Below, piece by piece: positions 5,979 through 22,861 of a stretch of 24,678 bases of DNA. How positions within the stretch are numbered: position 1 is the first letter of the stretch; the number at the start of each line of letters is the position of its first letter. Location of the stretch: positions 1 to 24,678 of the IMG/VR virus record IMGVR_UViG_2690316166_000006, one strand, 5' to 3'. Source of the stretch: a virus. Lineage: Duplodnaviria > Heunggongvirae > Uroviricota > Caudoviricetes. A program made the position numbers and the translations under genes. The notes under the pieces were generated by a model that was not told the origin of the DNA, did not search any database, and saw nothing but the letters and a program-made list of their open reading frames with translations.

Positions 5979-7144
5979 TATTCGTTCTCCCAGCGAGGTT
6001 TTATTAGATCATCAAAAATTTCTCGGCAAACAGGGTCCCATATAGAAACAGCATTTCTCCATGCATTCAATGTTGAACGTTGGTTTGCTGCTTGTTCAAA
6101 TACTGTTCTCATTTTTATCTGGCCTTTACCTACTTCATCGGTAACGCGTACAACCTGACGTAATACCATTGATCCCCATGTATTTCTTATTTGTTCTTCC
6201 ATCCATCGTGATTGATTCCCTGTAGTGAGACTATATTTAGTCAGAAGTAAGCGAACGGTTGGCTCAAATCCACCTAGGTCAACGCTTTCCAATAGATCGA
6301 GAAGCATTGTGAAAAACTGTAGAACAGAAGCGTAATCAAATAATTCTGCAGGTGTAGCAACAACAATAACGTCAGCGGCACAAACAACGTTAATGGTTCC
6401 TGTACCGAGGTTCGGAGCACTATCTATAACGATAACATCGTAGTTATCCCAAACTGATTCAATAGCTGCGCGCAGCATAAGGTGTGGAGGATGAGGCAAT
6501 TTACCCTGAGCATGATATTGCATGAGATCTGTTTCTATACGATGTAAAGCTAGGCAGCTAGGGATAATGTCTAGCCCAGGCCAACATGTTGGCTTTATAG
6601 CATATTCAGCGTTATCGCGTTCTCCTAAGTAAAATGGCAGTAAAGTATCCTCGGCATGGATATGTAAATCAGGAACATAACCGTGATACATAGAGGCCGT
6701 GCCTTGAGGATCGTTACCTTCAACCAAAAGAACACGATGACCTTGTAATGCTAACCATTGAGCTTGATGTACCGCAGACGATGTTTTATAAACGCCGCCT
6801 TTGTGTGACATAACGGCAAGCACAACAGGGTTTTTATCTTGTGGTCGTTGGTTTGGGTTGCCAAAAACTGCTCGCATACTGTTGATTTGATCTATGGTAT
6901 AACCAGCACGACGTTCAATTCTTCCTCTCATTTCAAAGTCAGGTGCAGGTAAACGCCCGCTCTTCTCAGCATCTCTAATTGCTTGAGGAGTTACACCAAT
7001 TAAATCTGCTACTTCAGTTATACCCCATCGGCGGGTGATACGCCGAGCTTCAGGACTATCATCACCGAATTGAGCGATAGCAATTGCTTGGGTCATTTCT
7101 TGACCTCTCGTAACACAATCTTGCAATAACTTTTTCAAAGACAT
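5978..7144 (-). CDS. sopA: Partition ATPase SopA (ParA/Walker-type, F SopA-like)
   Basis: 388 aa. Segments KGGVYKTS (deviant Walker A), LLVEGNDPQGTASMYHGYVPDLHIHAEDTLLPFYLGE, AIKPTCWPGLDIIPSCLALHRIET, VIVIDSAPNLG and WMEEQIR..WGSMVL match F SopA from memory. The stop overlaps the sopB start by 1 nt (TAATG). GGAGA lies upstream of the ATG. Confidence 0.93.
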   Translation of the reverse strand: MSLKKLLQDCVTRGQEMTQAIAIAQFGDDSPEARRITRRWGITEVADLIGVTPQAIRDAEKSGRLPAPDFEMRGRIERRAGYTIDQINSMRAVFGNPNQRPQDKNPVVLAVMSHKGGVYKTSSAVHQAQWLALQGHRVLLVEGNDPQGTASMYHGYVPDLHIHAEDTLLPFYLGERDNAEYAIKPTCWPGLDIIPSCLALHRIETDLMQYHAQGKLPHPPHLMLRAAIESVWDNYDVIVIDSAPNLGTGTINVVCAADVIVVATPAELFDYASVLQFFTMLLDLLESVDLGGFEPTVRLLLTKYSLTTGNQSRWMEEQIRNTWGSMVLRQVVRVTDEVGKGQIKMRTVFEQAANQRSTLNAWRNAVSIWDPVCREIFDDLIKPRWENE

Positions 7145-7159
7145 ACTGTCATCTCCAGC

Positions 7160-7245
7160 TTGTAACTTTGCTTAATAATTAAATCTTTGCTTATTTCTAG
7201 CAAATTTGCATGAAAAAGGCAAAGCAAAACAAAAAACGCAAAGGC
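7160..7245 (-). promoter_or_regulatory. sop operon promoter/operator region with four CTTTGC / GCAAAG hexamers
   Basis: CTTTGC at 7166 and 7185; GCAAAG at 7219 and 7238, each pair 19 bp apart. F sopAB autoregulation uses repeated CTTTGC SopA-binding motifs. Confidence 0.55.
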
Positions 7246-7580: not shown

Positions 7581-7622
7581 ACATAATTCCCCATTATACG
7601 CGCGTATAATGGGGAATTATGT
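7581..7622. promoter_or_regulatory. Telomere resolution site (telRL/telO-like): perfect 42-bp palindrome with a central CGCG, in uncleaved form
   Basis: acataattccccattatacgcgcgtataatggggaattatgt is its own reverse complement. The core CCCATTATACGCGCGTATAATGG matches the N15 telO core from memory. It lies between the divergent sopA and telN genes. Confidence 0.85.
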
Positions 7623-7792: not shown

Positions 7793-9694
7793 ATGAGCAA
7801 AGTAAAAATCGGTGAATTAATAAACTCACTTGTTAGCGATGTTGAGTCAATAGATAACTCTGACCGTCCTCAAGGGGAAAAAACAAAAAAAATAAAAGCT
7901 GTTGCATTAAAATTTAAAAATGCATTATTTAATGACAAGCGAAAGTTTAGGGGGAAAGGATTAGAAAAAAGAATTACAGCCAACACATTCAATGCCTATA
8001 TGAGCAGGGCCAGAAAACGGTTTGATGATAAACTTCATCATAGCTTTGAAAAAAATATACATCGCCTATCTGAAAAGTATCCTTTATATAATGAGGAGCT
8101 ATTATCATGGCTTTCTCTACCTGCTGCCGATATTCGCCAGAGAATGTCAGCTTTACAGGCAAAATTAAAATTAATTCTCCCTTTATCAGAAGATTTATCT
8201 AATATCAGAATTGGTGATAACAAAAGTCATAATAAGTTATTAAAATTATCAAATAAATATAAAGAGTGGCAATTCGCCATTTCTGATTTAACTAGCGATA
8301 ACTGGAAAGATAAGCGCGATTATTTATATAAATTACTACAGCAAGGATCTGCCTTACTTGAGGAGTTGAATCAGCTAAAAGTTAACCATGAGATTCTCTA
8401 TCATCTTCAACTAAGCCCTGCCGAACGCGCATCTATCCAGCAACGATGGGCAGACGTTCTGCACAATAAGAAACGTAACGTGGTGGTCATTGATTACCCT
8501 AAATATATGCAAGCTATTTACGATATTATAAATAGCCCTGCTACATTAAATAATCTAAACACTCGTTCAGGTATGGCTCCTTTGGCATTTGCACTTGCTG
8601 CATTGTCAGGAAGACGAATGATTGAGATTATGTATCAAGGTACATTTACTGTTTCTGGTAAGTATACCGTTGATTTTTTAGGCCAAGCAAAAAAAAGAAC
8701 TTCTGATGATATAACCAGAAAAATATATACATTATGCGAAGCAAAAACATTTGTTTATTTAATAAATGTACTTCGCTCATGCCCAGCAGCATCTGATTTT
8801 GATGATGTCGTTAAAGGTTATGGAGATAACGACACACGCTCTGAAAACGGACGGATTAATGCCATATTAGCAAAGGCTTTTAACCCGTGGGTTAAATCAT
8901 TTTTCAAAGATGACCGCCGTGTTTATAAAGATAGTCGTGCTATTTATGCCCGTATTGCGTATGAAATGTTTTTCCGCGTAGATCCTCGTTGGAAAAACGT
9001 AGATGAGGATGTTTTCTTTATGGAAATTTTAGGCCATGACGATGAAAACACTCAATTACACTATAAGCAATTCAAGCTGGCCAACTTCTCAAAGACATGG
9101 AGGCCAAATACTGGAAACGAAAATACCAGGCTGGAAGCATTGCAGCAGCTTGATGACGAAATGCCAGGATTCGCCAGAGGAGATGCCGGAGTTCGTCTGC
9201 ATAACACAGTTAAGCAGCTGGTAGAGCAGGACCCCTCTATAAAAATCACGAACAGCACTCTAAGAGCATTCAAATTTAGCCCTACAATGATTAGTCGATA
9301 CCTGGAATTTGCTGCTGATGCTCTGGGGCAATTTGTTGGCGAAAATGGACAATGGCAGCTGAAAATAGATTCTCCAGAAATCGTTATGCCTGACGAAGAA
9401 GAGCTGGAAGCAATACCTGAACAGACGGATGAATTATCAGAGGATGACGATCTGGATGACGACGAAATTGAGATAGAGGAAGAGGAAGAGGAAGAGGAAG
9501 AGAGCGTAGAAGAACAGCAACCGCCCGCGCCTTCTTCACCTGTATCTAAGCCGGTATTTAAGCCTGTGAGAAATATTGGTGATGGCTCATACGTTGTTGA
9601 ATTTCATTATAATGGCCAGAATTATGCTTGGTCCGGCAGTGCAAACAGCCCTATATCAGCAATGCAGTTAGCATGGCTGACATATTTCGGATAA
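7793..9694 (+). CDS. telN: Protelomerase TelN (telomere resolvase, tyrosine-recombinase-like)
   Basis: 633 aa. The N-terminus MSKVKIGELIN..DRPQGEKTKKIKA..KNALFNDKRKFRGKGL.KRITANTFNAYMSRARKRFDDKLHHSF and internal NTRSGMAPLAFALAA.SGRRMIEIM, RINAILAKAFNPWVKSFF and YARIAYEMFFRVDPRWKNVDEDVFFMEILGHDDENTQLHYKQFKLANFS match N15 TelN from memory. AGGAGAGG precedes the ATG. Confidence 0.95.
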   Translation: MSKVKIGELINSLVSDVESIDNSDRPQGEKTKKIKAVALKFKNALFNDKRKFRGKGLEKRITANTFNAYMSRARKRFDDKLHHSFEKNIHRLSEKYPLYNEELLSWLSLPAADIRQRMSALQAKLKLILPLSEDLSNIRIGDNKSHNKLLKLSNKYKEWQFAISDLTSDNWKDKRDYLYKLLQQGSALLEELNQLKVNHEILYHLQLSPAERASIQQRWADVLHNKKRNVVVIDYPKYMQAIYDIINSPATLNNLNTRSGMAPLAFALAALSGRRMIEIMYQGTFTVSGKYTVDFLGQAKKRTSDDITRKIYTLCEAKTFVYLINVLRSCPAASDFDDVVKGYGDNDTRSENGRINAILAKAFNPWVKSFFKDDRRVYKDSRAIYARIAYEMFFRVDPRWKNVDEDVFFMEILGHDDENTQLHYKQFKLANFSKTWRPNTGNENTRLEALQQLDDEMPGFARGDAGVRLHNTVKQLVEQDPSIKITNSTLRAFKFSPTMISRYLEFAADALGQFVGENGQWQLKIDSPEIVMPDEEELEAIPEQTDELSEDDDLDDDEIEIEEEEEEEEESVEEQQPPAPSSPVSKPVFKPVRNIGDGSYVVEFHYNGQNYAWSGSANSPISAMQLAWLTYFG

Positions 9695-11903: not shown

Positions 11904-14900
11904 TTACCCATAGAAAGCGCCCTGCTCTTCGTAGCTGCATGAGCTATTCCCGGTAATGTATTCTCGTAACCGCCGCAATTCATTGCTGGACAAGTGATCC
12001 ATGAACTCTGTGAGATACAGAGATGCAAACGTCATAGCTATGCTGGCTGATGACCATGATGACATAGTGGCCAGCTCCTCACCGGAAAGCGCACTCATCG
12101 CCCAGGACTCAGGAACAGCCACCGGCAATACGGCCAAAGCCTCAGAAATTACTGAATGAGGGGCGTTTTGAACCTGCTCGTTTGTGGATCGCGTTTTATC
12201 ATCCATATATATATTGAGATCCAAATCGCGATCCATTTCGATGGCTGTCTTCTCGGCTTTACGCGTTTTTAGGGTTAGGCCATCTTTCTGACGCTGAACA
12301 AGAATATCCAGCATAAATGCCGCTGATTCAGGCTCAACAAAACGCAAGGTTGGACGCTTATCGCCGTCTCTGCCGCGACGTTTACCTGTTTTAAGGCCAA
12401 GAGAGTCGCAAATGTTTTTAAACAACGCTTCCGGCACTTTAGGCTTCCCTTTTGGCGTCATAAAACCACCAATGTGCAGAACGTTATTCAACAGGTCACG
12501 GCGTTCGGCTGTCATGAGGTTATCTCGAGCGAATTTGAGACGCTCCTGAGTCGCCTCGCCGGTCATAGTCTCAGGGTTGATACCGCAGTCGATAAAGTAC
12601 TGCCGGAGAGTTGCTGATTTAAGCGCATAGAAACCGCGCGCCCCGACTTCAACAGTAGGAGTAGCTTTTACCTTGTAGTCGATTATTCCAGGGAATTTAG
12701 TTTTAAAGACATCATCAGCCTGCTCGCGAGTCATCGCGGTCACTACAAAATATTGCCACTGTCCCGCCTGACGGTATGCGTAGGTAAAATTGATGGCTGC
12801 TTCTTCCCGGTCGTAACGACGAGCTGTTACCTCATCTAAAAGCATTGTTTCATAGCGGCGAACTTTGTCTCGAGCACCATCGAAATAGAATTTCAGCGTG
12901 CCTTCTTCAACCGGTAGTTTCAGTTCGTTCTCAATATCCCAGCGGACAAGTTTTGCTTGTTCTTCAAGCGTCAGCGCGCGTTTTTTTAGCAGTTCTTCAC
13001 GCTCTGATTCTTGTGGAGTTTCTGTATTGAGATGCAGATCCAGTGTCTGTTCCCACACAATATCCCGCGCTTCTTTACGCAGATCTTTACCGATATCATT
13101 CGCAGCATAATCGGTGGCCAGCGGCGATACCTTATAACCGTCGCTGTGCATGATGCAGATCATGTTGCTGGCGTAGTCGTTACGCGCAGACGCTTCAATT
13201 GCGGCTGCTTTAATTTTCATCCTGGTAAAGTCGGTATTGGCCACCCCCATTGATATACGGTCGCCATCGAAAACGACATCCGTCAGTTCACCGTTCATGC
13301 CTGCGGTAGCAAGCAATGCCTGGACGAATGCTCGTTCTATTTTTTGCGGGTCAGTTTCACGTTTTGCGCGAGCTTTATCAAAGCCGATAATAAATTCTTT
13401 TGCTGTACGGTCGCGGCGTAGCATTTGCACTGCGTCGCTGGGTACAACTTCACCACAGAACATGCCGAAATGACGGTCAAAATGTTTTTGCTCAATCGAC
13501 ACACCGGATGAAATAGACGGGCTATAAATCAGGCCGTCGTATTTTTTGACCATCTTTTTCGGTTGATTGGTAAATGCTTCAACTTCTGGCTCTGGTTTGT
13601 TTTTCTGGTTTACACACAGAAATTTCTTACCAGGAAAATGCATTCTCAGGGTGGCGGTCACATCTTCTGCAAAGGTGGAGCTGTCGGTGGCCAACATGAT
13701 TTTTTCGCCATTCGATACAGCTTTCACCACCTCGGTCATAATGCGATCTTTTTCTGTATAAAAAACCCGGATTGGCTCACCTGTTTCGCGGTTGCGAACA
13801 TCAACAGGTAATTCAATTACGTGGATCTGCAGCCATGCCGGTAAACCTAGTTCTTCACGGCGTTTCATAGCCAGTTCAGCCAGGTCAACCAGCAGATCGT
13901 TCGCATCAGCATCCACCATTATTGGGTGTTGTTCCGTTCTGGCCAGCGCGTCAATTAACGTATTGAATACAGCCACCGGGTTTTCCATAGCCCGACCGGA
14001 AATAACGGCACGTAGCCCTTGCGTGGCCTCGTCAAAGCCAAAATAGTCGTGCTGGCGCATCAATGGTTGCCAGCAGTTTTTAACAATCGAGTTTATGCAG
14101 ATGGTCAGTTTACTGGCGTATGGAGCCATTTCCTGATAGCCAGGGTCCTGATAGTGCAGGATATCGGCTTTTACACCTTTTCCTTCTGTCATCATTTCCC
14201 ACAGGCCACCAATAAGGGAAACACGGTGAGCAACAGAGATACCACGTTCTGAGCTATGCATTAAAGGTCGTAACAATCCAGTAGATTTGCCGGAACCCAT
14301 ACCAGCACGAACGATGACTATCCCCTGTAGTGATTGCACATACTTCAGGACGTCATCGGTCATTACCGAAGTTTCAAAACGCTTATAGGTGATATGTTGA
14401 GGACGTTTATTGGGATCAGTTATTCGTTCGCTGAATGAGCGCGGAGCCTGGGCAATACGGCACTTTTTATTCAGGCGACGGGCAATGTGGTCTTTTACCG
14501 TAGCGCGATAGATATTTTCCAGCCCAATTTCACGCAGGACGATGCAGAACATGTTAAATAAGTCTGACGGACTGTTAGGAACCGGACAGGTTAGCATGCC
14601 AATATCCACTGCTCTCAGCAGCTCTTTGGCAAAAGTACGACGGTTATCCCGCTTAATTGTCTTCAGGCGGTTGAGCGTCAGAGATAGCAAATCAGTGCCA
14701 GTTTTCAGGCGGTTTGCAGTTGCAAACAGTTGACGTGCTGTTTCACGAAGTCCACGTAGTTTGTGCAGGTCGTTGAAGTCACTGCACTCCATTTGCGGAT
14801 CGTCTTCAAAAGTTGGATAGACGCAGCGGACATCGTTGAATTTCGATAAGATTTCATAGCCAGTCCGCAGGCCGGTATTCCCTTTTCCTTCTGTAGCTGA

Positions 14901-15899
14901 TTTCCGGTCATTATCCAGTGCGCAGGTGATTTTTGCCGCCGGGTACATGTTTACCAGTTGTTCCACAACATGAACCATGTTGTTAGCGGATACAGCGACA
15001 ACCACAGCGTCAAAGCGTTTATCTTTTTTCGTGGCAAGCCAGATGGATGCACCAGTAGCAAAACCTTCTGTAACAGCGATGTTTTGCGCCCCTTTCAGCT
15101 CACCGATAACAAAGCAGGCACCGACGAAATCGCCGCTGGTTACGGCGCTGGTCTGGTATTTTCCACCTTGTTTGTCGATTCGCTGCCAACCAACAATACG
15201 ACCATCGTAACGACCGTCCAGGTGAGCCAGAGGGATAGCCATATACGTGGTTGGCCCCCTGCTCCATTTTGCGCTGTCGTGACTGGTCACGCGACGCACA
15301 TCACACGAATTAAAAACGTCACGAATACCTTTTTTAATCGCATATGGCCATGAGCCGTCTTCTGCAGGAGCATGTTCCCAAGCACTGTGGAATGCCAGCC
15401 ATCCCAGCAAACGTTCATGGTCCATTTGGTTGTTTTTCAGGTCATTAATTCGTTTTTGTTCTTCACGGCGACGACGTGCTTCGGCCTGACGTTCTATTCT
15501 TGCCCGTTCTTCTTCCGGTTGTGCGACCACGGTCGCATTATTCCGTTGTTGCTCACGGCGATATTCAGAAAACAGGAAGGAGAAACCGCTCCATGAGCCA
15601 GCATCGCTGCCTTTATGGACGAAGTTAATGAACGGGTAATCAATCCCTTTGCTGTGTTCCAGCCGGGAGTAAATTTCTACGCGTCCTTTGAGGCTCTTTT
15701 CGAGAGCTTCTGGGGATGTTTTATTGTATGAAGAGTAACGCTCAACACCCCCGCGAGGGTTGAGTTGGATGTTGTCGGAACAGGCAGACCAGTTGATACC
15801 AGCCATCTGTGCCAGCTCGGTTAGTTCATCCCGTGCTGCTTCAATTAGCGAGAACGGATCGCTGCCAAAGCGATCCGCATAGAAATCGTTTAATGTCAT
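11904..15899 (-). CDS. repA: Replication protein RepA: large primase-helicase (N15 RepA / P4 alpha-like)
   Basis: 1331-aa ORF. Toprim-like primase motifs (VTEGFATGASI, AVSANN, ALDNDRK) and Walker A GMGSGKST. Size and position next to cB match N15 RepA. Confidence 0.88.
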   Translation of the reverse strand: MTLNDFYADRFGSDPFSLIEAARDELTELAQMAGINWSACSDNIQLNPRGGVERYSSYNKTSPEALEKSLKGRVEIYSRLEHSKGIDYPFINFVHKGSDAGSWSGFSFLFSEYRREQQRNNATVVAQPEEERARIERQAEARRRREEQKRINDLKNNQMDHERLLGWLAFHSAWEHAPAEDGSWPYAIKKGIRDVFNSCDVRRVTSHDSAKWSRGPTTYMAIPLAHLDGRYDGRIVGWQRIDKQGGKYQTSAVTSGDFVGACFVIGELKGAQNIAVTEGFATGASIWLATKKDKRFDAVVVAVSANNMVHVVEQLVNMYPAAKITCALDNDRKSATEGKGNTGLRTGYEILSKFNDVRCVYPTFEDDPQMECSDFNDLHKLRGLRETARQLFATANRLKTGTDLLSLTLNRLKTIKRDNRRTFAKELLRAVDIGMLTCPVPNSPSDLFNMFCIVLREIGLENIYRATVKDHIARRLNKKCRIAQAPRSFSERITDPNKRPQHITYKRFETSVMTDDVLKYVQSLQGIVIVRAGMGSGKSTGLLRPLMHSSERGISVAHRVSLIGGLWEMMTEGKGVKADILHYQDPGYQEMAPYASKLTICINSIVKNCWQPLMRQHDYFGFDEATQGLRAVISGRAMENPVAVFNTLIDALARTEQHPIMVDADANDLLVDLAELAMKRREELGLPAWLQIHVIELPVDVRNRETGEPIRVFYTEKDRIMTEVVKAVSNGEKIMLATDSSTFAEDVTATLRMHFPGKKFLCVNQKNKPEPEVEAFTNQPKKMVKKYDGLIYSPSISSGVSIEQKHFDRHFGMFCGEVVPSDAVQMLRRDRTAKEFIIGFDKARAKRETDPQKIERAFVQALLATAGMNGELTDVVFDGDRISMGVANTDFTRMKIKAAAIEASARNDYASNMICIMHSDGYKVSPLATDYAANDIGKDLRKEARDIVWEQTLDLHLNTETPQESEREELLKKRALTLEEQAKLVRWDIENELKLPVEEGTLKFYFDGARDKVRRYETMLLDEVTARRYDREEAAINFTYAYRQAGQWQYFVVTAMTREQADDVFKTKFPGIIDYKVKATPTVEVGARGFYALKSATLRQYFIDCGINPETMTGEATQERLKFARDNLMTAERRDLLNNVLHIGGFMTPKGKPKVPEALFKNICDSLGLKTGKRRGRDGDKRPTLRFVEPESAAFMLDILVQRQKDGLTLKTRKAEKTAIEMDRDLDLNIYMDDKTRSTNEQVQNAPHSVISEALAVLPVAVPESWAMSALSGEELATMSSWSSASIAMTFASLYLTEFMDHLSSNELRRLREYITGNSSCSYEEQGAFYG
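15278..15291. repeat. 14-bp palindrome cgtgactggtcacg inside repA (GTGACYRGTCAC family, copy 2)
   Basis: Perfect inverted repeat sharing the 12-bp core with the sites at 10601 and 20994. Confidence 0.4.
15522..15537. promoter_or_regulatory. sopC-like centromere candidate TGCGACC-AC-GGTCGCA inside repA
   Basis: 16-bp palindrome with the same architecture as the F sopC core TGGGACC-AC-GGTCCCA. One of three copies in the window. Confidence 0.5.
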
Positions 15900-16022
15900 T
15901 TTTTAGCCATTCCATGCGAATTATGTTTTTTCGGGTTGAAAAAATCCGCAGGAGCAGCCACAATAAACGCATCTTGAATTGACGGAATCCGTCGCGTTAC
16001 TGTGGCTGCTTCCTGAAAAGGA

Positions 16023-16050
16023 CCCGAGTTTGCCGACTCGGGTTTTTTTT
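16023..16050. terminator. Hairpin with T-run between cB and repA; attenuator or terminator in the repA leader
   Basis: Stem cccgag / ctcggg with loop tttgccga, then eight T. An adjacent long imperfect stem-loop (ggagcagccaca ... tgtggctgcttcc, about 15963-16025) is followed on the minus strand by a U-run. Confidence 0.5.
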
Positions 16051-16144
16051 CGTCTTTTTTCTGCTGCTGTAACCTGAGTCAACCCACAGAACATATGCTC
16101 TGCATTAAACCAGATTTACAGCAAACAATAAACCCCGTATTAAG

Positions 16145-16741
16145 TCATCTACCCTCAACCATGAATGATTTGATCGTTCCGACTATTTGGTGAACAAATT
16201 CAAGATCGCTTTTCCTGAAGATAGCGCGTTGTGAATTTGTTCCGTCCAGATAGTAATTTTCATCATCAAAACGGGCCAGGCGCTGGATGGTGATATTTCC
16301 TGCAGTATCACGAACCAGAACATCCTCGCCGGGGACCAGTTCCAGCGCAGAATCGACCAGGAGAAAATCGCCAGGCTGATAGTTTCCCTGCGCCAGATTG
16401 CTGATAGTTAACGCATAAACAGTATTGCGCTGGCTGATGAATGGCAGGAATCGCTCAGTATTTGGAACCTGTCCTGGCTTCCACTCTTCATCAGGTCCAC
16501 TTTCAGTTGTGCCAATAACAGGAATGCGATCAGGGTCATATTCTGTCCCATACAGCACCCAATGCACTGGCTTGCGTAAGCATTTAGCCAGGGCAATACC
16601 TATCTCCAGTGACGGCATTACGTCGCCACGTTCTAAGTTTTGGACGCCTGCAATAGAGATATCGACAGCCTCAGCAACTTCTCGCAACGTCAGCTTCATC
16701 TCTAAACGGCGTGCTTTCAGTCGTTCGCCTCGTGTTTTCAT
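16145..16741 (-). CDS. cB: Prophage repressor CB (CI-like: N-terminal HTH plus C-terminal LexA/S24-like domain)
   Basis: 198 aa. N-terminal HTH (LTLREVAEAVDISIAGVQNLERG) and a C-terminal domain of S24-peptidase-like length. Divergent from a cro-like gene across an operator-bearing intergenic region. Confidence 0.85.
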   Translation of the reverse strand: MKTRGERLKARRLEMKLTLREVAEAVDISIAGVQNLERGDVMPSLEIGIALAKCLRKPVHWVLYGTEYDPDRIPVIGTTESGPDEEWKPGQVPNTERFLPFISQRNTVYALTISNLAQGNYQPGDFLLVDSALELVPGEDVLVRDTAGNITIQRLARFDDENYYLDGTNSQRAIFRKSDLEFVHQIVGTIKSFMVEGR

Positions 16742-16763
16742 AGCTTAATCATAAATGATCTTC

Positions 16764-16805
16764 TTATAGCTGGCTATAAAATTTATTTATTATAGCTGGC
16801 TTTAA
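16764..16805. promoter_or_regulatory. Immunity operators: palindrome TTATAGC-TG-GCTATAA (16764-16779) and a second copy TTATAGCTGGCTTTAA (16790-16805)
   Basis: Two related 16-bp sites 26 bp apart between cB and cro. A TATAAT at 16821-16826 lies 6 bp upstream of the cro ATG. Confidence 0.6.
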
Positions 16806-16832
16806 ATGCGATTTATTGCTTATAATAACCGC

Positions 16833-17054
16833 ATGAAACCAGAAGAACTTATTCGCCACTTTGGCAGTGTAGAAAAAGCAGCGGCTGGGGTAGGTGTAAC
16901 ACCCGGTGCTGTTTACCAATGGTTAACCGCTGGAGAGATTCCTTCATTGCGGCAAAGTGATATTGAAGTTCGTACTGCTTACAAGCTGAAGAGTGACTTT
17001 ACAACTCGGCGGGTAAAGCAGTCGATTAAGGAGAGCCGTAAGCGTGGAGCTTGA
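16833..17054 (+). CDS. cro: Cro-like small DNA-binding protein
   Basis: ORF 16806..17054. The ATG at 16833 is preferred (MKPEELIRHFGSVEKAAAGVGVTPGAVYQWL: helix-turn-helix). The TATAAT just upstream suggests a leaderless transcript. Confidence 0.75.
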   Translation: MKPEELIRHFGSVEKAAAGVGVTPGAVYQWLTAGEIPSLRQSDIEVRTAYKLKSDFTTRRVKQSIKESRKRGA

Positions 17055-17754
17055 GTATATACGCAGCTGCGTCTCCACGGCATTGGCTGATATTCATTAT
17101 CGCCAGCGTGGCATCCTAGAGGTCCAGCTTGAGCAGATGCGTCTAGGCAGATCAGGACGCTTTAACAATAAACCAGTCCGGTCAATCAGTGTAGGTGATG
17201 ATAACTCATACGAAGTGTCTGTTCCTGCTGAGCCGGTTAGATTCCACCAGGGCAAAACATTTAAACAATCATCAATGTTGCTCACTGATATTGATTTTCA
17301 GAGCGCCAGCTGGCGCAGGGCTATTGGTCAGTTGAATAACGAGGAATCAGCCTGGCTTTATTATTGCTACGGATGCAAGCCTGACTACAACAATGATGTG
17401 ATTGTTTGTCAGTGGTTATGGCTTGATTTTCTGGTTGCGCATTCGGGTGGCGGGTTTAAAAAAATGAAGGCCTCCACGAAAAAAGCCATGAGAAAATTGA
17501 TTTATTACGCGGCACAGCAGGTTAAGTCAGAACTTACGTGTGCTGAGGCAGTTGATGAGAGAGAACAGGACAGGCATCTGAGTTTTCTACTGAATATATC
17601 TATTGATAGCTGGAGACAAGATTATAAAGAACGCTGGCTTTTAATTAAGTCGCGATGTCTGAGCTTAAATCGAACTGCATTATTAAATGCGGCGGAGAAG
17701 CGCAGTGAAATCATCAAACGCCATCGGGCAGGAAGTGCCATTCTGCCTTTGTAA
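17044..17754 (+). CDS. Hypothetical protein (236 aa) in the position of a Q-like late regulator
   Basis: ORF 17044..17754 immediately after cro. Assignment is by position only; no diagnostic motif seen. Confidence 0.4.
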   Translation: MELEYIRSCVSTALADIHYRQRGILEVQLEQMRLGRSGRFNNKPVRSISVGDDNSYEVSVPAEPVRFHQGKTFKQSSMLLTDIDFQSASWRRAIGQLNNEESAWLYYCYGCKPDYNNDVIVCQWLWLDFLVAHSGGGFKKMKASTKKAMRKLIYYAAQQVKSELTCAEAVDEREQDRHLSFLLNISIDSWRQDYKERWLLIKSRCLSLNRTALLNAAEKRSEIIKRHRAGSAILPL

Positions 17755-17761
17755 ACAAGTT

Positions 17762-18007
17762 ATGTTCAGGAAACCGTCGAAGCCAGAATTAAGGTATTCG
17801 GGGGTAAGAAATGAATATGTTATCTGGTGTCCAACTTGTGGTTACAGAACACGACCAGATAGTAATAAGCAGTCTGTAATTGCCGATTGGTATTTATCAA
17901 ATCAGCCAGGTAATAAGCATATAGAAAATCTTTGGATTAAGCGTTACTTGGAAATCAGAGAGGGTGCGACCGTGGTCGCACAAGAAAATGAAAATAACGC
18001 CATTTAA
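17762..18007 (+). CDS. Small hypothetical protein with a CPTCG motif (81 aa)
   Basis: ORF 17687..18007 trimmed to the first ATG after the upstream stop. Confidence 0.35.
   Translation: MFRKPSKPELRYSGVRNEYVIWCPTCGYRTRPDSNKQSVIADWYLSNQPGNKHIENLWIKRYLEIREGATVVAQENENNAI
17964..17981. promoter_or_regulatory. sopC-like centromere candidate GTGCGACC-GT-GGTCGCAC
   Basis: 18-bp palindrome with the same arms as the sites at 15522 and 22732, central dinucleotide in opposite orientation. Confidence 0.5.
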
Positions 18008-18017
18008 GCAGGGGCCG

Positions 18018-18191
18018 ATGACGCATGATGAAGCAGAGCGTCTTTCAGATACTTATCGGCGGCGTGGTAAGAAAGTTCTGGTTGTTCGTTCTGATTTTTT
18101 AGGTGATGGATATTGCGTTTATGTTCATTTACCTGAATCAGAAAGAGCGCCAAAACCATCCAGAACATATCAACAGAAGTTTTGGGTATAG
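18018..18191 (+). CDS. Small hypothetical protein; start uncertain (17988 or 18018)
   Basis: ORF 17964..18191. The ATG at 18018 has AGGGG upstream. Confidence 0.3.
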   Translation: MTHDEAERLSDTYRRRGKKVLVVRSDFLGDGYCVYVHLPESERAPKPSRTYQQKFWV

Positions 18192-18214
18192 ATAAACGTT
18201 GAGGATAATTATTC

Positions 18215-18814
18215 GTGACTAATCAGATTATTTACGACAGGAAACGGTCTGATGTAATGATTGACCTTGAAACAATGGGTACTAATACATGTGCTGCAAT
18301 TGTTTCTATCGGAGCAGTGTTTTTTTCTCCAGAAAGTGAGGAATTAGGTCCTACCTTTTATGTGCCAGTGAATCTCAGAAGCTCGATGTTGAATGGTGGT
18401 ATCGCCGATGGTGATACCATTTTATGGTGGTTGAAACAGAGCAAGGAAGCCAGAGCCGCTATTTGTACTAATGATGCCCTTGATATTAAGGATGCACTTT
18501 TTGAATTATCACACTTTATTACTTGCCATGCATGTAATTTAAAAAAGTTGAAAGTATGGGGAAATGGAGCAACGTTCGATAATGTAATTTTACGCGGTGC
18601 TTATGAGCGCGTTGGCTTAGCCTGTCCGTGGGAATATTTTAATGATCAGGATGTTCGAACAATCGTTAATCTTGGTCAGTTTATTGGTTTTAATCCTAAA
18701 AAAGATATGCCATTTGATGGCGAACGACACAATGCCCTGGCTGATGCTATTCATCAGGCTAAATATGTATCCGCAATTTTCTCCCGTCTTGTAAAAGGGC
18801 AAGGAGAATCGTAA
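18215..18814 (+). CDS. DEDDh-type 3'-5' exonuclease
   Basis: 199 aa. Exo I motif MIDLETMG and Exo III motif HNALADA. GTG start with GAGGA 8 nt upstream. Confidence 0.7.
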   Translation: MTNQIIYDRKRSDVMIDLETMGTNTCAAIVSIGAVFFSPESEELGPTFYVPVNLRSSMLNGGIADGDTILWWLKQSKEARAAICTNDALDIKDALFELSHFITCHACNLKKLKVWGNGATFDNVILRGAYERVGLACPWEYFNDQDVRTIVNLGQFIGFNPKKDMPFDGERHNALADAIHQAKYVSAIFSRLVKGQGES

Positions 18815-19236
18815 TGGCAAAGTCTTTTACACCAGAACAGAGGAAAGAACTGAATAAACAAATTGTGGAACTCGTGCGCCTGAATGGACGAGGAACGGTT
18901 AGGCAACTTGCGGATGAAACTGGTATTAGCCGGTGTGCTGTTAGTCGTTTATCAAGAGAGCTTGCTGCCAGTGGTGATTTGTATATCTCTGGCTCCGGGA
19001 TATTTCTGTCTGCACAAGCACGCAAGGACTGGCAAAACGCCCGTAAAAAACTATCAAGAGTAAAGCCGAAGAAATCGGTAGTGGTTGATCCAGACCTTAT
19101 CTGGTCATTACCTGACGGAGAAATACGTCGTTACGACAGGCGCTTGAACATGATTTGTCACGATTGTCGGAAGAGCGAAGTTATGCAGCGTGTACTGGCG
19201 TTTTATCAGGGAAATTTTCATGAGGTGGTGCGGTGA
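18814..19236 (+). CDS. Putative winged-helix/HTH DNA-binding protein (140 aa)
   Basis: ORF 18814..19236. GTVRQLADETGISRCAVSRLSREL resembles an HTH. Start overlaps the upstream stop. Confidence 0.5.
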   Translation: MAKSFTPEQRKELNKQIVELVRLNGRGTVRQLADETGISRCAVSRLSRELAASGDLYISGSGIFLSAQARKDWQNARKKLSRVKPKKSVVVDPDLIWSLPDGEIRRYDRRLNMICHDCRKSEVMQRVLAFYQGNFHEVVR

Positions 19237-19523
19237 ATATCGACACAACAATGACGGTCGATACGGTTCTGAATACTGGTCTGGCCCTGTTTGGTTATTT
19301 TTACATCATGTTCAGCGCAGGGAAGTGGGCGGCCACTGTTTTTCTAAAACAGTGGAAAAAACGGCGCAAACAGGAGCTACGCCAGAAGGCATTAGAAGCG
19401 TTCTATGACGCATTTGAACTTAACAGCATTGAACCAGGCACAACAGTCAGAGTGGCAACCAAAGGTGATCTGATGATCATGATGTTCCGACAGGAGAAAG
19501 CAGAGAAAGGGGAATCCGCATGA
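19233..19523 (+). CDS. Small membrane protein (96 aa)
   Basis: Hydrophobic segment LNTGLALFGYFYIMFSAGKWAATVF. Overlaps both neighbours by 4 nt. Confidence 0.5.
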   Translation: MNIDTTMTVDTVLNTGLALFGYFYIMFSAGKWAATVFLKQWKKRRKQELRQKALEAFYDAFELNSIEPGTTVRVATKGDLMIMMFRQEKAEKGESA

Positions 19524-20098
19524 AATTTTCCAAATTTTCTGAGTTGGTGAATCGTATCTTGTCCAACAAACACAGCCAGCGTTGCGATATGAATGTAACG
19601 ATTGTTGTTCATTCACCAGGTAGCATTGGTTCAACACCATCAGTTGATGTTCAGTCAATTCAGGCTGGTTTTGACTGGGATTCCGGACAAGTAATGATTT
19701 TTCCAGCCCAGCAACTGACTACGCTAACTCCAGAGCAGGTTGCTGATATTACTGAAAGCGTGCGCAAAGGACAGTCCTGGCACGCATATCAGGAATACAA
19801 AAAGCATAAAGAGCAGTTGGAAAAATTGTCTATTGAGCTGGAAGCTGCAAGAAAGCGAATTGTAGAACAGGGAAACAAAGTAACACCAGTGTCAGCTGAA
19901 CTGCCACCTGCAAATGAAAGTGTTTTGTTATTCGATGCTAACGGAGAAGGCTGGCTGATTGGCTGGCGTTCTCTCTGGTACACCTGGGGACAAAAAGAAA
20001 CCGGAGAATGGCAGTGGACATTTCAGGTCGGGGATCTTGAAAACGTCAATATCACTCATTGGGCAGTAATGCCGAAAGCACCGGAGGCTGGAGCATAA
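19520..20098 (+). CDS. Hypothetical protein (192 aa)
   Basis: ORF 19520..20098. The C-terminal W-rich segment (WLIGWRSLWYTWGQ ... ITHWAVMPKAPE) resembles the DUF551 family, from memory only. Confidence 0.5.
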   Translation: MKFSKFSELVNRILSNKHSQRCDMNVTIVVHSPGSIGSTPSVDVQSIQAGFDWDSGQVMIFPAQQLTTLTPEQVADITESVRKGQSWHAYQEYKKHKEQLEKLSIELEAARKRIVEQGNKVTPVSAELPPANESVLLFDANGEGWLIGWRSLWYTWGQKETGEWQWTFQVGDLENVNITHWAVMPKAPEAGA

Positions 20099-20655
20099 TG
20101 ATCACGTTTACCGACAAAGAACTGATTAAAGAAATCAAAGAGCGAATCGGTAGCCTGGACGTTCGAGACAATATTGAGCGCCGTGCTTATGAAATTGCAC
20201 TGGCATCGCTGGAAGCAGATCCAGTTGCTTATATTTTCAAACATCCGGCTGGAAAATTATTCTGGGCTTTAACGGATGAAAGCAATAAAGAGCAATCGGA
20301 CGTTATTCCTGTTTATGCCGCCCCTCCAGTGCCAGTAGTACCTGAAGAAAAACCAATGCCTAACCCTCTTAAAATGTACGCGGTTGATGCTGTTGCCGCT
20401 ATTGCAGAGGTGAGAGGCTGGAACGCCTGTCGTGCCGCTATGCTTCAGAGTCAAGGTAATTGCATTAAGGATGGTTGGATAAGCTGTAGTGAGCAAATGC
20501 CAGATGATGGTCGTATTCAGTTTTCTGTTTCACTTCCAGCAGCATGTGGTGGAGATAAATATTTTATTGATGGTGTATTTCAACCTTTGAGATATGAGCG
20601 TGACTGTGAAAAAGCGGTTGTGGCCGCTGGCGGTGTAGTTAATTGGGTTAAGTAA
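20098..20655 (+). CDS. Hypothetical protein (185 aa)
   Basis: ORF 20059..20655 trimmed to the ATG at 20098, which overlaps the upstream stop (TAATG) and has GGAGG upstream. Confidence 0.5.
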   Translation: MITFTDKELIKEIKERIGSLDVRDNIERRAYEIALASLEADPVAYIFKHPAGKLFWALTDESNKEQSDVIPVYAAPPVPVVPEEKPMPNPLKMYAVDAVAAIAEVRGWNACRAAMLQSQGNCIKDGWISCSEQMPDDGRIQFSVSLPAACGGDKYFIDGVFQPLRYERDCEKAVVAAGGVVNWVK

Positions 20656-20670
20656 TTTTTAGGAGGATTT

Positions 20671-20997
20671 ATGGCGCTGACACCGGCAGAACGGCAAAGA
20701 AGACGCAGGGAACGGTTGAAGAAGGAAGGAACATCAAGACGTGACTGGATTCTGGAACCTGACGAGTTACGTATGTTGGGGGAAATTTGTGTATTGCGTA
20801 GACCAGGGCGAGTTCCATATTCAGAGAACGAAGTCATCGGACTGCTGATCAGGAAAAACTATAAGGAGTTGCAGAAACAGCTATCTACTACTTGTCCGCG
20901 ATGTGGTCAAAAAATGCCTGTTTCAGAATGCATTTTTGATGGTGAAGGCTCATGCCACCTTACAACCACGAGGCTGAAACTTGCGCTCAAAGTGTGA
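20671..20997 (+). CDS. Hypothetical basic protein with a CPRCG zinc-ribbon-like motif (108 aa)
   Basis: ORF with AGGAGGA upstream. Arg-rich N-terminus (ERQRRRRERLKKEG). Confidence 0.5.
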   Translation: MALTPAERQRRRRERLKKEGTSRRDWILEPDELRMLGEICVLRRPGRVPYSENEVIGLLIRKNYKELQKQLSTTCPRCGQKMPVSECIFDGEGSCHLTTTRLKLALKV

Positions 20998-21005
20998 CTG
21001 GTCAC
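20994..21005. repeat. 12-bp palindrome GTGACTGGTCAC (GTGACYRGTCAC family, copy 3)
   Basis: Overlaps the stop of the 20671..20997 ORF and precedes the RBS of the small ORF at 21016. Confidence 0.4.
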
Positions 21006-21015
21006 GGAGGGATAA

Positions 21016-21171
21016 ATGGACAAAAAGGCATTGCTTTTTGAAATGATACGAAAACGGAGCGAAAAGAGCTTTTCTGATGGTGGTGATGGGCTTTTGAAAG
21101 TGGTTGGGCGAGGCGTAGGAAGGGAACATAAGTATCGGACTACAAAGATATTTAACCAGTTAATCCATTGA
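21016..21171 (+). CDS. Small ORF (51 aa)
   Basis: GGAGGG lies 6 nt upstream of the ATG. Not in the ORF track because it is under 60 aa. Confidence 0.3.
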   Translation: MDKKALLFEMIRKRSEKSFSDGGDGLLKVVGRGVGREHKYRTTKIFNQLIH

Positions 21172-21172
21172 A

Positions 21173-21189
21173 AGTTGGCTATAAAATTT
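21173..21189. promoter_or_regulatory. Operator-like motif AGTTGGCTATAAAATTT matching the cB-cro operator region
   Basis: 16 of 17 identical to 16768-16784 (AGCTGGCTATAAAATTT). Confidence 0.45.
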
Positions 21190-21198
21190 GAGTTTTAC

Positions 21199-21217
21199 CC
21201 TGTAATTTTATACAGTA
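21199..21217. promoter_or_regulatory. LexA (SOS) box CTGT-N8-ACAG
   Basis: cCTGTaattttatACAGta fits the E. coli SOS box pattern. It overlaps a promoter-like TTGAGT-17-TACAGT and lies 25 bp upstream of the ATG at 21240. No other CTGT-N8-ACAG site was seen on manual scanning. Confidence 0.6.
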
Positions 21218-21239
21218 TCAAATAACCTTTTTTAATTAA

Positions 21240-21458
21240 ATGGTATTAGATTCAATGACTGAAGCACCTGTATCAACTCTTGAAGAACTCGGATCAAACC
21301 TAAAAGACATCGACGCCGTTTTGGATCTGGTTAGCGTTGCTCTGGCTTCTCCAGAAGCCAGCTTGCATCTTGGCGAGATTTCACGACTTGTTAGTATGTC
21401 GCGGGAGATTGCTCAGAATTGCCAACAAGTTATTGCTGTTGAGTGTTTGCATCATTGA
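21240..21458 (+). CDS. Small acidic protein (72 aa); candidate SOS-inducible antirepressor
   Basis: ORF directly downstream of the LexA box and the operator-like site. No RBS seen. The function is inferred from context only. Confidence 0.4.
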   Translation: MVLDSMTEAPVSTLEELGSNLKDIDAVLDLVSVALASPEASLHLGEISRLVSMSREIAQNCQQVIAVECLHH

Positions 21459-21501
21459 TACACACCCCGCCCTTCTGGACGGGGTAGCGAAAAGGGTCTA
21501 A

Positions 21502-21789
21502 TCAATAGACGGCATTAATATTAATCGTTGCACCGCATGCTTGGGCATATTTTGATAAAGTTTTCATGCTTGCCCCTAAAGGATTGCTTTCCAGGCGGCT
21601 GATAGCTGACGGGCGCAATCCCATTCGTTCAGCCAGAGCTGACTTCGTTAAACCTGCTCTTTCCCTCATTTCGTATAACATTTCGACCATCTCCAGCTCT
21701 TTATCGGCCTCTTCATATCCTTTGATGGCTTCTGGAGTGTTGAGAAGTTTTTCTTTTACTTCGTTAAACGGGATGCCTTTCGCTTTCAT
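21502..21789 (-). CDS. HigA-like antitoxin (XRE-family HTH)
   Basis: 95 aa. LTKSALAERMGLRPSAISRLESNP is an HTH typical of HigA-type antitoxins. Sits downstream of, and overlapping, the toxin gene. Confidence 0.75.
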   Translation of the reverse strand: MKAKGIPFNEVKEKLLNTPEAIKGYEEADKELEMVEMLYEMRERAGLTKSALAERMGLRPSAISRLESNPLGASMKTLSKYAQACGATININAVY

Positions 21790-22100
21790 CAGTTCATCTC
21801 CTTCAGGCGAGTTCTGGCGATTTCGATAGCCTTCACCGGTGTTTTCTGTGTCTTTTTTACAAATGCATGCAATAGATAAATTTCGTTACCAGTCGCGTAG
21901 GCGTACAGCGTTCTTGCGATGTTTTTATCCCCTACTCGTAGTTCAAAAAGCCCTCCACCTATTACACGGCTATGGGGCATCTTCAGTTTGTTGCCTTCCT
22001 TCTCCAGTCGCTCAATTAATCTGGTCATGCGACCTCGCAAATCATCTGGTAGTTCAAGCAGTTCATCCAGTGCTGCAGGGTGGGTTATCACGTTAAACAT
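21789..22100 (-). CDS. HigB/RelE-superfamily toxin (phage Gp49-like family)
   Basis: 103 aa. LFELRVGDKNIARTLYAYATGNEIYLLHAFVKKTQKTP matches the Gp49-like killer-protein pattern. Toxin-first order is typical of higBA. Confidence 0.7.
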   Translation of the reverse strand: MFNVITHPAALDELLELPDDLRGRMTRLIERLEKEGNKLKMPHSRVIGGGLFELRVGDKNIARTLYAYATGNEIYLLHAFVKKTQKTPVKAIEIARTRLKEMN

Positions 22101-22158
22101 ATTATAGCCTCCATAGCCACAAAATACACCAAAACAAGAAAAAAGCGCAAATTAAAAA

Positions 22159-22176
22159 TTTCACTAAAAAGTGAAA
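22159..22176. promoter_or_regulatory. Inverted repeat TTTCACT-AAAA-AGTGAAA upstream of the toxin gene; candidate autoregulatory operator
   Basis: 7-bp arms with a 4-bp spacer, about 60 bp upstream of the toxin start. Confidence 0.45.
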
Positions 22177-22265
22177 AATAACACTGGATGTGTTCGTTTG
22201 GCAGAGTTACAGTTCGTGTCATTGAGGGGCAATAACCCACTAACTATATGAATTTGGAGGATATT

Positions 22266-22487
22266 ATGAATTATCAAGGTAACGAAAAAATGCGCGACGA
22301 CGTTGCGGAGATAGCTAACGAACTGTATGAGTTGTGGCAGAAGGTTGAACGTTTCGAAAAGGAATATGGTTTCAACAGTACCAACCTGGCAGACCGACTG
22401 GCTGGTCGCTTAGTTGGGACTATGGGGCCAAAACTGGCTGAGTTGAACCGCTTTATGGCTGATGTTGATTTCCAGTTTCAAGATTGA
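22266..22487 (+). CDS. Small hypothetical protein (73 aa)
   Basis: ORF 22248..22487. The ATG at 22266 is preferred, with GGAGG upstream. Confidence 0.45.
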   Translation: MNYQGNEKMRDDVAEIANELYELWQKVERFEKEYGFNSTNLADRLAGRLVGTMGPKLAELNRFMADVDFQFQD

Positions 22488-22500
22488 TTAGAGAGGCGTT

Positions 22501-22728
22501 ATGAATATTAATGAAATTCGTGGAAATATGACTGAAGCGGCCCTGAGTGTGGAATGTGTTATGCGTGGATACCCACGCATTTCCCTGAAAGAGTTAAGCG
22601 AAGCCTGTTTTTTGAGTCAAGCTGCCGTTGAATTTATCATCGAACAGATGATCTGTTTTGGGGTTGCAAAGCGTAGCGGGTCTGGTCGATATTCTTTGAC
22701 CGATGAATATAAGCAGGCAACTTTCTAA
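22501..22728 (+). CDS. Small hypothetical protein (75 aa)
   Basis: ORF with GAGAGG upstream. Confidence 0.45.
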   Translation: MNINEIRGNMTEAALSVECVMRGYPRISLKELSEACFLSQAAVEFIIEQMICFGVAKRSGSGRYSLTDEYKQATF

Positions 22729-22731
22729 AAA

Positions 22732-22753
22732 CTGTGCGACCACGGTCGCACAG
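22732..22753. promoter_or_regulatory. sopC-like centromere candidate CTGTGCGACC-AC-GGTCGCACAG
   Basis: 22-bp palindrome, the longest of the three copies, just after the stop of the preceding ORF. Confidence 0.5.
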
Positions 22754-22837
22754 CACAAAAACGAAAAAGCTTGGCAAAATTACGGTTTTTAGTTATTGTT
22801 TTGTTAAGTTGGGTTTTTTGTACCCAACAGCCAACAA

Positions 22838-22861
22838 GCCGCCTTTATGGCGGTTTTTTTG
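22838..22861 (+). terminator. Rho-independent terminator
   Basis: Stem ccgcc / ggcgg with loop tttat, then seven T. Preceded by a hairpin ttgggt-tttttg-tacccaa and followed by a 10-bp stem gcaggacaag / cttgtcctgc (22878-22903). Confidence 0.5.

Follow-up and report, generated by a model that had tools for sequence, protein, structure and literature searches.

Partition genes of a linear plasmid prophage

The window, by which we mean the whole stretch of DNA analysed (24,678 nucleotides), comes from a linear plasmid prophage of E. coli that resembles N15; its identity is 97% to phage PhiR46_1 and ~76% to N15. Its gene content includes sopA, sopB, telN, repA, cB, cro and Q, together with the telRL telomere site (Table 1). 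A protelomerase, telRL and RepA were all found, and given the presence of the telRL palindrome the replicon can be assigned as a linear plasmid prophage.

Table 1. Coordinates of the genes, sites and signals discussed in the text
Feature	Coordinates	Strand	Description
sopB	5013..5978	-	ParB-family centromere-binding protein, 321 aa; Pfam SoPB_HTH, E = 7.8e-25
sopA	5978..7144	-	ParA-type Walker ATPase, 388 aa, partition motor partner; Pfam AAA_31, CbiA, ParA
Inverted CTTTGC...GCAAAG hexamers	7185..7224	.	28 bp apart; upstream of sopA
telRL	7581..7622	.	42-bp perfect palindrome, protelomerase target; contains PhiR46_1 telL/telR sequence
telN	7793..9694	+	Protelomerase; Pfam TelK_N, muzzle, catalytic and stirrup domains
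repA	11904..15899	-	Replication gene, primase/helicase type; Pfam Toprim_3 and Herpes_ori_bp; holds site 1
Site 1, IR1-orthologous putative centromere site	15521..15538	.	18-mer GTGCGACCACGGTCGCAT with one outer mismatch; 16-mer TGCGACCACGGTCGCA at 15522-15537; flanks match N15 IR1
ORF overlapping the end of Q	17687..18007	+	Conserved, 106 aa, CxxC...CxxC motifs; overlaps Q end; site 2 near C-terminus (...E-G-A-T-V-V-A-Q...)
Site 2, IR2-orthologous putative centromere site	17964..17981	.	GTGCGACCGTGGTCGCAC; 210 nt past Q stop codon; in 3' end of ORF 17687-18007
Site 3, IR3-orthologous putative centromere site	22732..22753	.	CTGTGCGACCACGGTCGCACAG, 10-bp arms; core 22734-22751; between gp51-like ORF stop and late promoter; aligned with N15, phiKO2 and Citrobacter relative
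Late promoter and terminator	22771..22856	+	Promoter TTGGCA-N17-TATTGT, 22771-22799; terminator 22836-22856; precedes methyltransferase and lysis genes

The SopB encoded in the window is 72% identical to the SopB proteins of N15 and phiKO2, and it aligns with the structure of F SopB (3MKY, E = 2e-38). It carries a Box II motif, G-S-R-R-R, the role of which is described in PMC8357417, and a helix-turn-helix (HTH) of the N15 type, GNVKALAEAENIDRNIITRCIN. The specificity stretch around the conserved arginine reads D-R-N in the window, N15 and phiKO2 and S-R-K in F, and 18 of the 22 residues of the specificity region are identical to N15 SopB, with four differing. The replicon therefore encodes a cognate SopA/SopB pair with an N15-type specificity stretch, and RefSeq relatives label the sopA product 'plasmid-partitioning protein SopA'. 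By analogy with the promoters of F, N15 and phiKO2, in which this motif and its 28-bp spacing are reported (PMC8465637), the inverted hexamers upstream of sopA probably form the operator of SopA at the sop promoter.

Three dispersed palindromes and their conservation

Three palindromes of the form GTGCGACC-NN-GGTCGCAC lie in the window, at the coordinates and with the arms of 7-10 bp given in the initial annotation. Each matches the consensus with 0-1 mismatches, as do four sites in N15, and a scan of the entire window that allowed up to three mismatches returned these three alone, with no further weaker sites, for example near sopAB or telRL. The initial annotation had held that three copies could not be chance, and dinucleotide-preserving shuffles bear this out: 0.12 copies of the 16-mer and 0.03 of the free-centre 18-mer are expected, and none of 100 shuffles reached the observed count.

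Site 1 is situated 361 nt from the start of the repA ORF. Site 3 lies 6 nt past the stop of the ORF at 22501-22728 and 19 nt upstream of a promoter-like element, which together with the terminator that follows it aligns with annotated counterparts in N15 and phiKO2; this region is presumably the target of Q antitermination. The location of site 1 in repA and of site 3 beside a promoter and terminator is as first described. Site 2 is not intergenic and falls within the ORF at 17687-18007. That ORF is also found in N15 (35653-35973) and phiKO2 (20087-20389 in L003), and is without annotation in NC_001901 and PV340565.

Because site 1 is embedded in a coding sequence, reading AAT GCG ACC GTG GTC GCA (N-A-T-V-V-A) on the coding, minus strand, it was possible to compare synonymous positions inside and outside the palindrome. 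The repA segments compared were selected through a protein anchor and not through the motif, and the core was kept in all 15 distinct versions of them, even though pairwise nucleotide identity in the flanks falls to 71% among the relatives compared. All four third-codon (synonymous) positions in the arms were invariant versus 8 of 59 in the flanks (Fisher P = 8e-4, 15 distinct relatives, in a sample that is not fully unbiased, the loci having been fetched via exact matches to neighbouring sites). The centre dinucleotide in contrast varies freely (AC, GT, GC, AT and TC), even with amino-acid changes. Given that the arm positions are invariant while 51 of the 59 flanking synonymous positions vary across diverged relatives, the comparison indicates that the arms of site 1 are under selection as DNA itself. 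The corresponding test at IR2 gave P = 0.005, a value that is biased in that most of the loci were fetched through exact IR2 matches, and to which we attach no weight.

Relation to the centromere sites of N15, F and other plasmids

N15 contains four such sites, at 33479, 35930 (the counterpart of site 2), 41124 and 45561, with flanks matching the published IR1-IR4 oligonucleotides (PMC7205306), and the three sites of the window match IR1-IR3 in sequence, flanks and position. In both genomes the core is GTGCGACC-NN-GGTCGCAC with a free centre, and the sopAB operon stands apart from the centromere sites, adjoining telRL/telN. The sites themselves, unlinked from sopAB, are found in repA, downstream of Q and before the late promoter, and these positions are syntenic from E. 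coli phages to those of Klebsiella and Citrobacter. The window differs from N15 in its degree of divergence (~76% nucleotide identity in repA to N15 gene 37, 72% amino-acid identity in SopB), in slight changes to the outer base pair and centre dinucleotide, and in that its lineage, represented by PhiR46_1, has five sites rather than four. In place of the N15 IR4 context PhiR46_1 has two sites 220 bp apart, both of which would lie past the end of the window, and at least one or two additional sites are expected just past its right end.

Four annotated 18-bp sites occur at the same four syntenic positions in phiKO2, with the sequence of site 3 of the window. The phage differs in host genus and structural gene module, and its sites, including the site 2 equivalent at 40345, carry no firmer annotation than 'putative plasmid partitioning site'. 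Five sites are present in a Citrobacter relative, and the extra sites of relatives are located after the capsid gene or between the lysis and terminase genes. A collection of viral contigs yielded 120 exact matches, all but two of which (L083 and L095) were in N15-like genomes or shared modules. The motif is thus largely but not strictly limited to elements that encode sop: ~28 contigs share just a head-tail module with a Citrobacter N15-like plasmid and carry a single copy of the motif after the capsid gene; word-based scans, which reach close relatives only and yield few loci, gave no match to SopB or TelN in these contigs.

The IR1-IR4 centromere sites of N15 were reportedly described by Ravin and Lane in 1999 and by Grigoriev and Lobocka in 2001. 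According to published work, N15 SopB binds exactly these sequences and makes foci on an IR1-IR4 array, whereas F SopB does not use these sites (PMC7205306). Furthermore, N15-derived vectors are stabilised by the centromere in N15 repA when sopAB is provided in trans, with plasmid loss of <0.1% per generation (PMC2847241).

The initial annotation had likened the palindromes to the core of F sopC. F sopC is likewise built on a 16-bp inverted repeat, to which SopB binds by a homologous HTH, 14 of the 16 bases are identical, and the SopA/SopB machinery is homologous to that of the window. However, each site of the window has exactly two mismatches to the F core TGGGACCACGGTCCCA, placed symmetrically (F sequence from PMC3597684), such that position 3 of the half-site is G in F and C in the window, and the specificities of N15 and F SopB are one base per half-site apart, a change that switches specificity (PMC2910045). 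Immediately downstream of its sopB, F carries a tandem array of 10-12 repeats of 43 bp, whereas the sites of the window are single and dispersed; a tandem 43-bp repeat array is absent across the whole window, and 9.5 kb separates sopB from the closest site. On the basis of the two symmetric mismatches per site and the missing array we rejected an F-type sopC centromere. What stands of the earlier comparison is that these are sopC-related targets of SopB, as judged from the matches to N15 IR1-IR3 and the N15-type HTH; the specificity is not that of F but that of N15.

A second precedent for scattered sites is provided by the KorB sites of RK2/RP4 (OB1-OB12) and by dispersed chromosomal parS. 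Both share with the window a ParB-family protein and a short palindrome in several dispersed copies, and differ from it in having an unrelated site sequence and a protein of an unrelated subfamily; regulation by KorB, moreover, has been demonstrated. The KorB sites are a model of dual partition and regulation for the regulatory idea proposed for SopB.

Partition, regulation and other readings

The sites are real and beyond chance; they are orthologues of IR1-IR3, constrained at the level of DNA, and co-occur with an N15-type SopB. Very probably they serve as parS-like centromere sites of the N15 type, within a type Ia SopABC system carried by an N15-like linear plasmid prophage. We infer by homology that SopB of the window's phage binds the sites, spreads from them and acts in partition, to which the purifying selection on the DNA at site 1 lends indirect support, the most likely function of each site being to nucleate a SopB partition complex. 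In such a scheme SopB dimers would recognise each 16-18-bp inverted repeat via the HTH, and by analogy with F SopB/ParB further CTP-bound SopB would load onto the flanking DNA to give the partition complex. This complex would in turn stimulate nucleoid-bound SopA, so that sister plasmid copies separate before division, and it would be assembled at single sites scattered through the replicon (in repA, after Q and before the late promoter) and unlinked from sopAB.

Given that one site is in repA and another adjacent to the late promoter, it was not unreasonable to suggest, as the initial annotation did, that SopB modulates replication and late transcription as well, and the suggestion is plausible. 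For N15, a regulatory role of SopB had reportedly been considered already by Grigoriev and Lobocka (2001), as well as in reviews by Ravin. Stated fully, the sites would be centromeres at which SopB binding and spreading also tunes repA and replication (site 1) and restrains the late promoter and the genes downstream of Q (sites 2 and 3), so that partition would be coupled to the lysis-lysogeny decision. This proposal extends the centromere explanation and does not replace it; we consider it possible, although doubtful. Circumstantially in its favor, site 1 is close to the start of repA, at 361 nt, the positions of the sites are syntenic from E. coli phages to those of Klebsiella and Citrobacter, and the interval between site 3 and the -35 element is invariant at 19-20 nt in 19 of 19 distinct relatives, with a conserved A-rich spacer. 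That constant spacing, on the other hand, could reflect tight packing of the gp51 stop and the promoter in closely syntenic genomes, and the extra sites of relatives, being in other contexts, argue that promoter proximity is not general. The late promoter, moreover, is already under Q antitermination and the CB repressor, and silencing by ParB proteins at natural protein levels is usually weak. Also in its favor, ParB-type proteins, F SopB included, spread from their sites and can silence flanking genes (PMC7205306 mentions silencing assays), and the dispersed KorB sites of RK2 join transcriptional control with partition (PMC3597684).

Two more specific forms of the idea may be named, and taken together we judge them unlikely: that the constant spacing at site 3 and the placing of sites 1 and 2 within repA and the Q-overlapping ORF are functional, the SopB complex in the lysogen directly damping transcription of repA and from the late promoter, or that the single palindrome after the capsid gene is a target by which a resident N15-like plasmid interferes with the apparently sop-less prophages that carry it, or by which these exert incompatibility against the plasmid.

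The palindromes might instead act as transcription terminators or RNA hairpins rather than as DNA bound by a protein, and the N15 IR4 stem-loop is in fact annotated as a 'putative rho-indep. transcription terminator' in NC_001901. Consistent with this, AGTTTTTAG follows site 3 on the minus strand, and the copy downstream of the capsid gene in other phages is within a terminator region. However, none of the three was picked up in a scan for terminators. Neither strand has a T-run at sites 1 and 2, both of which are within ORFs, and the T-run of site 3, which N15 lacks, is on the non-transcribed strand, so that a G+C-rich stem-loop with a T-run on the transcribed strand, as an intrinsic (rho-independent) terminator has, was found at no site. 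A two-base centre would also make for a strained loop, and an identical 16-bp sequence at unrelated positions suits a sequence-specific protein and not a generic hairpin. We therefore regard termination as highly improbable. Scarcely credible is the suggestion that some other phage protein (CB or Cro repressor, protelomerase, DNA methyltransferase) has its operators or targets at the palindromes, or that they are a remnant of chance or recombination: several DNA-binding proteins are encoded nearby, and the motif occurs in prophage-like contigs in which neither SopB nor TelN was detected, but the annotated CB operators of N15 are in the cB-cro and repA-cB intergenic regions and not at the palindromes, telRL is unrelated in sequence, chance is excluded by the shuffles, and it is SopB for which binding to the exact N15 sequences has been published (PMC7205306).

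With the sites read as centromeres, a common, diverged lineage of E. coli phage-plasmids has retained the N15 layout of scattered single sites, each in its N15 position; the public records of this lineage, PhiR46_1 for example, leave the sites unannotated. The palindrome in repA provides a clear example of selection at the DNA level within a coding region, to which that in the Q-overlapping ORF would add a second, and the 18-mers are reliable annotation markers for N15-like phage-plasmids and their incompatibility specificity. Dispersed partition sites are already known from N15 and are an ordinary feature in a relative of that phage, and the finding by itself is of little weight; the regulatory coupling alone, if true, would be of wider interest. 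In that event plasmid segregation would be tied to the lysogenic-lytic switch by dilution or loss of SopB, or by transcription across the sites following induction.

Three palindromes in an N15-like plasmid prophage

The region spanned by the window shares 97% identity with Escherichia phage PhiR46_1, ~76% with phage N15 and ~75% with Klebsiella phage phiKO2, and many E. coli genomes contain similar plasmids of ~46 kb. Given its gene set, and a 42-bp perfect palindrome (ACATAATTCCCCATTATACGC/GCGTATAATGGGGAATTATGT) within which the telL/telR sequence of PhiR46_1 is contained, the element is an N15-like linear plasmid prophage. This 42-bp palindrome is the telRL target of the protelomerase, and since it is uncut the arrangement of the window is that of the virion or circular form, not that of the prophage.

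All three sopC-like palindromes reported in the initial annotation were found where it had placed them. Searches at up to three mismatches, with the 16-mer or with GTGCGACC-NN-GGTCGCAC, returned exactly three sites in the window and none further. The statement of the initial annotation that three copies could not be chance held, as 0.12 (16-mer) and 0.03 (GTGCGACC-NN-GGTCGCAC) sites were expected and 0 of 100 shuffles of the window preserving dinucleotides reached three. Each site differs at two symmetric positions from the sopC core of the F plasmid, TGGGACCACGGTCCCA (PMC3597684).

Elsewhere in the window, the inverted hexamers just upstream of sopA agree in motif and spacing with the ParA/SopA operators described in the partition promoters of F, N15 and phiKO2 (PMC8465637). 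A strong terminator separates repA from cB, in the position occupied in N15 by the repA-leader and antisense-RNA terminators, and the 26-bp repeats between cB and cro are the probable counterparts of the CB operators.

Features of the window, and motif matches in the N15 genome
Feature	Position	Strand	Sequence, context or basis
Site 1	15522-15537 (18-mer 15521-15538)	read on minus	TGCGACCACGGTCGCA
Site 2	17964-17981	read on plus	GTGCGACCGTGGTCGCAC
Site 3	22732-22753		CTGTGCGACCACGGTCGCACAG
SopB	5013-5978	minus	Pfam
SopA	5978-7144	minus	Pfam
Inverted hexamers	7185-7224		CTTTGC...GCAAAG, 28 bp apart
telRL palindrome	7581-7622		42 bp, perfect
Protelomerase	7793-9694		Pfam
Large replication protein	11904-15899	minus	Pfam
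Terminator	16015-16050		16-bp stem
26-bp repeats	16756-16817		2.3 copies
CB-like repressor, Cro, Q			Pfam
106-aa ORF	17687-18007	plus	two CxxC motifs
~68-aa ORF	17988-18191	plus	MKITPFKQGPM...
Promoter	22771-22799		TTGGCA-N17-TATTGT
Terminator	22836-22856		
DNA methyltransferase, holin			Pfam
N15 match	33479		inside gene 37 (repA)
N15 match	35930		after gene 40 (Q)
N15 match	41124		5 nt past gene 51; 20 nt ahead of annotated late-promoter -35 element
N15 match	45561		after gene 58

Orthologues of the N15 centromere sites

The N15 genome contains four matches to the motif, identical in sequence and flanks to the IR1-IR4 oligonucleotides of "the four IR sites" from which an artificial N15 centromere was built (PMC7205306, Table 4). 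The window sites have flanks in common with IR1, IR2 and IR3, as at IR1, where the window reads TTCTTCCGGTT, site, TATTCCGTTG and N15 reads TTCTTCCGGCT, site, CATTCCGTTG. The three palindromes are thus the IR1-IR3 orthologues of an N15-like phage-plasmid of E. coli, and the initial annotation had correctly observed a feature already known from N15.

The number of sites differs among relatives. In phiKO2 there are four, each labelled "putative plasmid partitioning site" in its record and located at the position of an N15 match. PhiR46_1 and a Citrobacter freundii N15-like plasmid have five each. The last two of PhiR46_1 (L002:17793 and 18013) follow the lysis genes at a 220-bp interval, and counterparts of these two are predicted ~0.7-0.9 kb past the right end of the window. 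Some Klebsiella-type relatives carry the IR3 site twice in tandem, at a 47-bp interval, immediately ahead of the late promoter (L011:1784/1831; L081:5554/5601). The older N15 immB record U45242.1 disagrees with the complete N15 genome within IR2 (~2088-2105); a sequencing compression at the palindrome is the probable cause, and this discrepancy, by fusing reading frames, accounts for the long 'orf QD1' annotation of that record.

Selection acting on the DNA within coding sequence was examined in repA segments gathered by the protein anchor SWSGFSF instead of the motif. The core GCGACC-NN-GGTCGC was present in the same frame in all 27 segments (15 distinct), a sample that is not fully unbiased because exact matches to neighbouring sites had been used to fetch the loci in the first place. 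Compared pairwise, the flanks were as little as 71% identical, and invariant third-codon positions numbered 4 of 4 inside the arms and 8 of 59 outside (Fisher P = 8e-4). The centre dinucleotide varied even at amino-acid cost, with V replaced by M at IR1, and V, S, T, A or M encoded at IR2. Invariant arms around a variable centre are what a palindrome bound by a protein that does not read the centre should look like. A parallel conservation test at IR2 was circular and was given no weight.

Site 2 is likewise not intergenic and falls close to the C-terminal end of a conserved 106-aa ORF, which in turn overlaps Q at the end of that gene; this ORF is also found in N15 and phiKO2, and is unannotated in NC_001901, NC_005857 and PV340565. 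It is followed by a conserved ORF of ~68 aa, again found in N15 and phiKO2. The same peptide, A-T-x-V-A, is encoded at the two embedded sites (within N-A-T-V-V-A-Q of RepA and G-A-T-V-V-A-Q of the 106-aa ORF), because the palindrome is alike on both strands and is read in the same codon phase; only residue x is altered by variation of the centre dinucleotide.

Distribution of the motif among viral contigs

Scanned for exact matches, the viral contig collection gave at least 120 stretches. Among the matches listed, almost all were in N15-like contexts, whether IR1-IR4, the PhiR46-type pair or other recurrent contexts, the last on contigs with genes for N15-like RepA, TelN or SopB as well. Two matches (L083 and L095), with atypical G+C content and centre dinucleotides, look like chance hits. 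The exception among the matches listed was an extended-arm copy (CTGTGCGACCACGGTCGCACAG) after an HK97-type major capsid gene in ~29 IMG/VR contigs, which also occurs in Citrobacter N15-like plasmids (copies at L021:4071, L123:4070 and L198:44802). Most of these contigs have only the head-tail module in common with the Citrobacter plasmids, and in most of them word-based SopB and TelN scans, which reach only close relatives, gave no match.

When 80 capsid-gene homologues were taken irrespective of the motif, the palindrome core was present in 36, concentrated in a sublineage with at least 95% capsid identity. Among the close homologues, two of the 36 carry an outer-arm point mutation (L250, L260), two further copies have the core broken by point mutation (L259, L293), and one homologue (L269) has lost the whole segment. 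The capsid-downstream copy may be a centromere site carried as a passenger of a recombining structural module.

SopB specificity and the function of the sites

The IR array supports focus formation by N15 SopB, and F SopB is functional with its own site only (PMC7205306). A single nucleotide in each half-site distinguishes N15 from F sites, and the specificity of N15 SopB is carried by residues 179-200, where the neighbours of the conserved Arg190 are unlike those in F SopB (PMC2910045). The corresponding stretch of the window SopB is GNVKALAEAENIDRNIITRCIN, and around the conserved arginine D-R-N is found in the window, N15, phiKO2 and PhiR46_1, and S-R-K in F. The window SopB also contains the Box II motif G-S-R-R-R, which is required for CTP-dependent spreading of F SopB (PMC8357417). 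The best-supported reading is that the three palindromes are partition sites nucleating SopB complexes, and we consider this very probable.

Site 3 lies 6 nt past the stop of a gp51-like ORF and 19 nt ahead of a promoter that is followed by a terminator, in agreement with the promoter/terminator cluster of the initial annotation. The whole unit can be aligned to the late promoter and terminator annotated in N15 and phiKO2, and in all 19 distinct versions the site at the IR3 position is separated from the promoter by 19 or 20 nt. The conserved juxtaposition is compatible with the further proposal, an idea already discussed for N15, that SopB has a second role in modulating transcription of repA and late transcription; however, other relatives have extra sites in non-promoter contexts, and this putative added function seems doubtful. 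That the palindromes act as a terminator or hairpin, or are bound by a protein other than SopB, is effectively excluded.

The sequence-level steps of the partition reading are documented here, and by analogy with N15 and F the three palindromes would be bound by SopB, which would spread from them and stabilise the plasmid.
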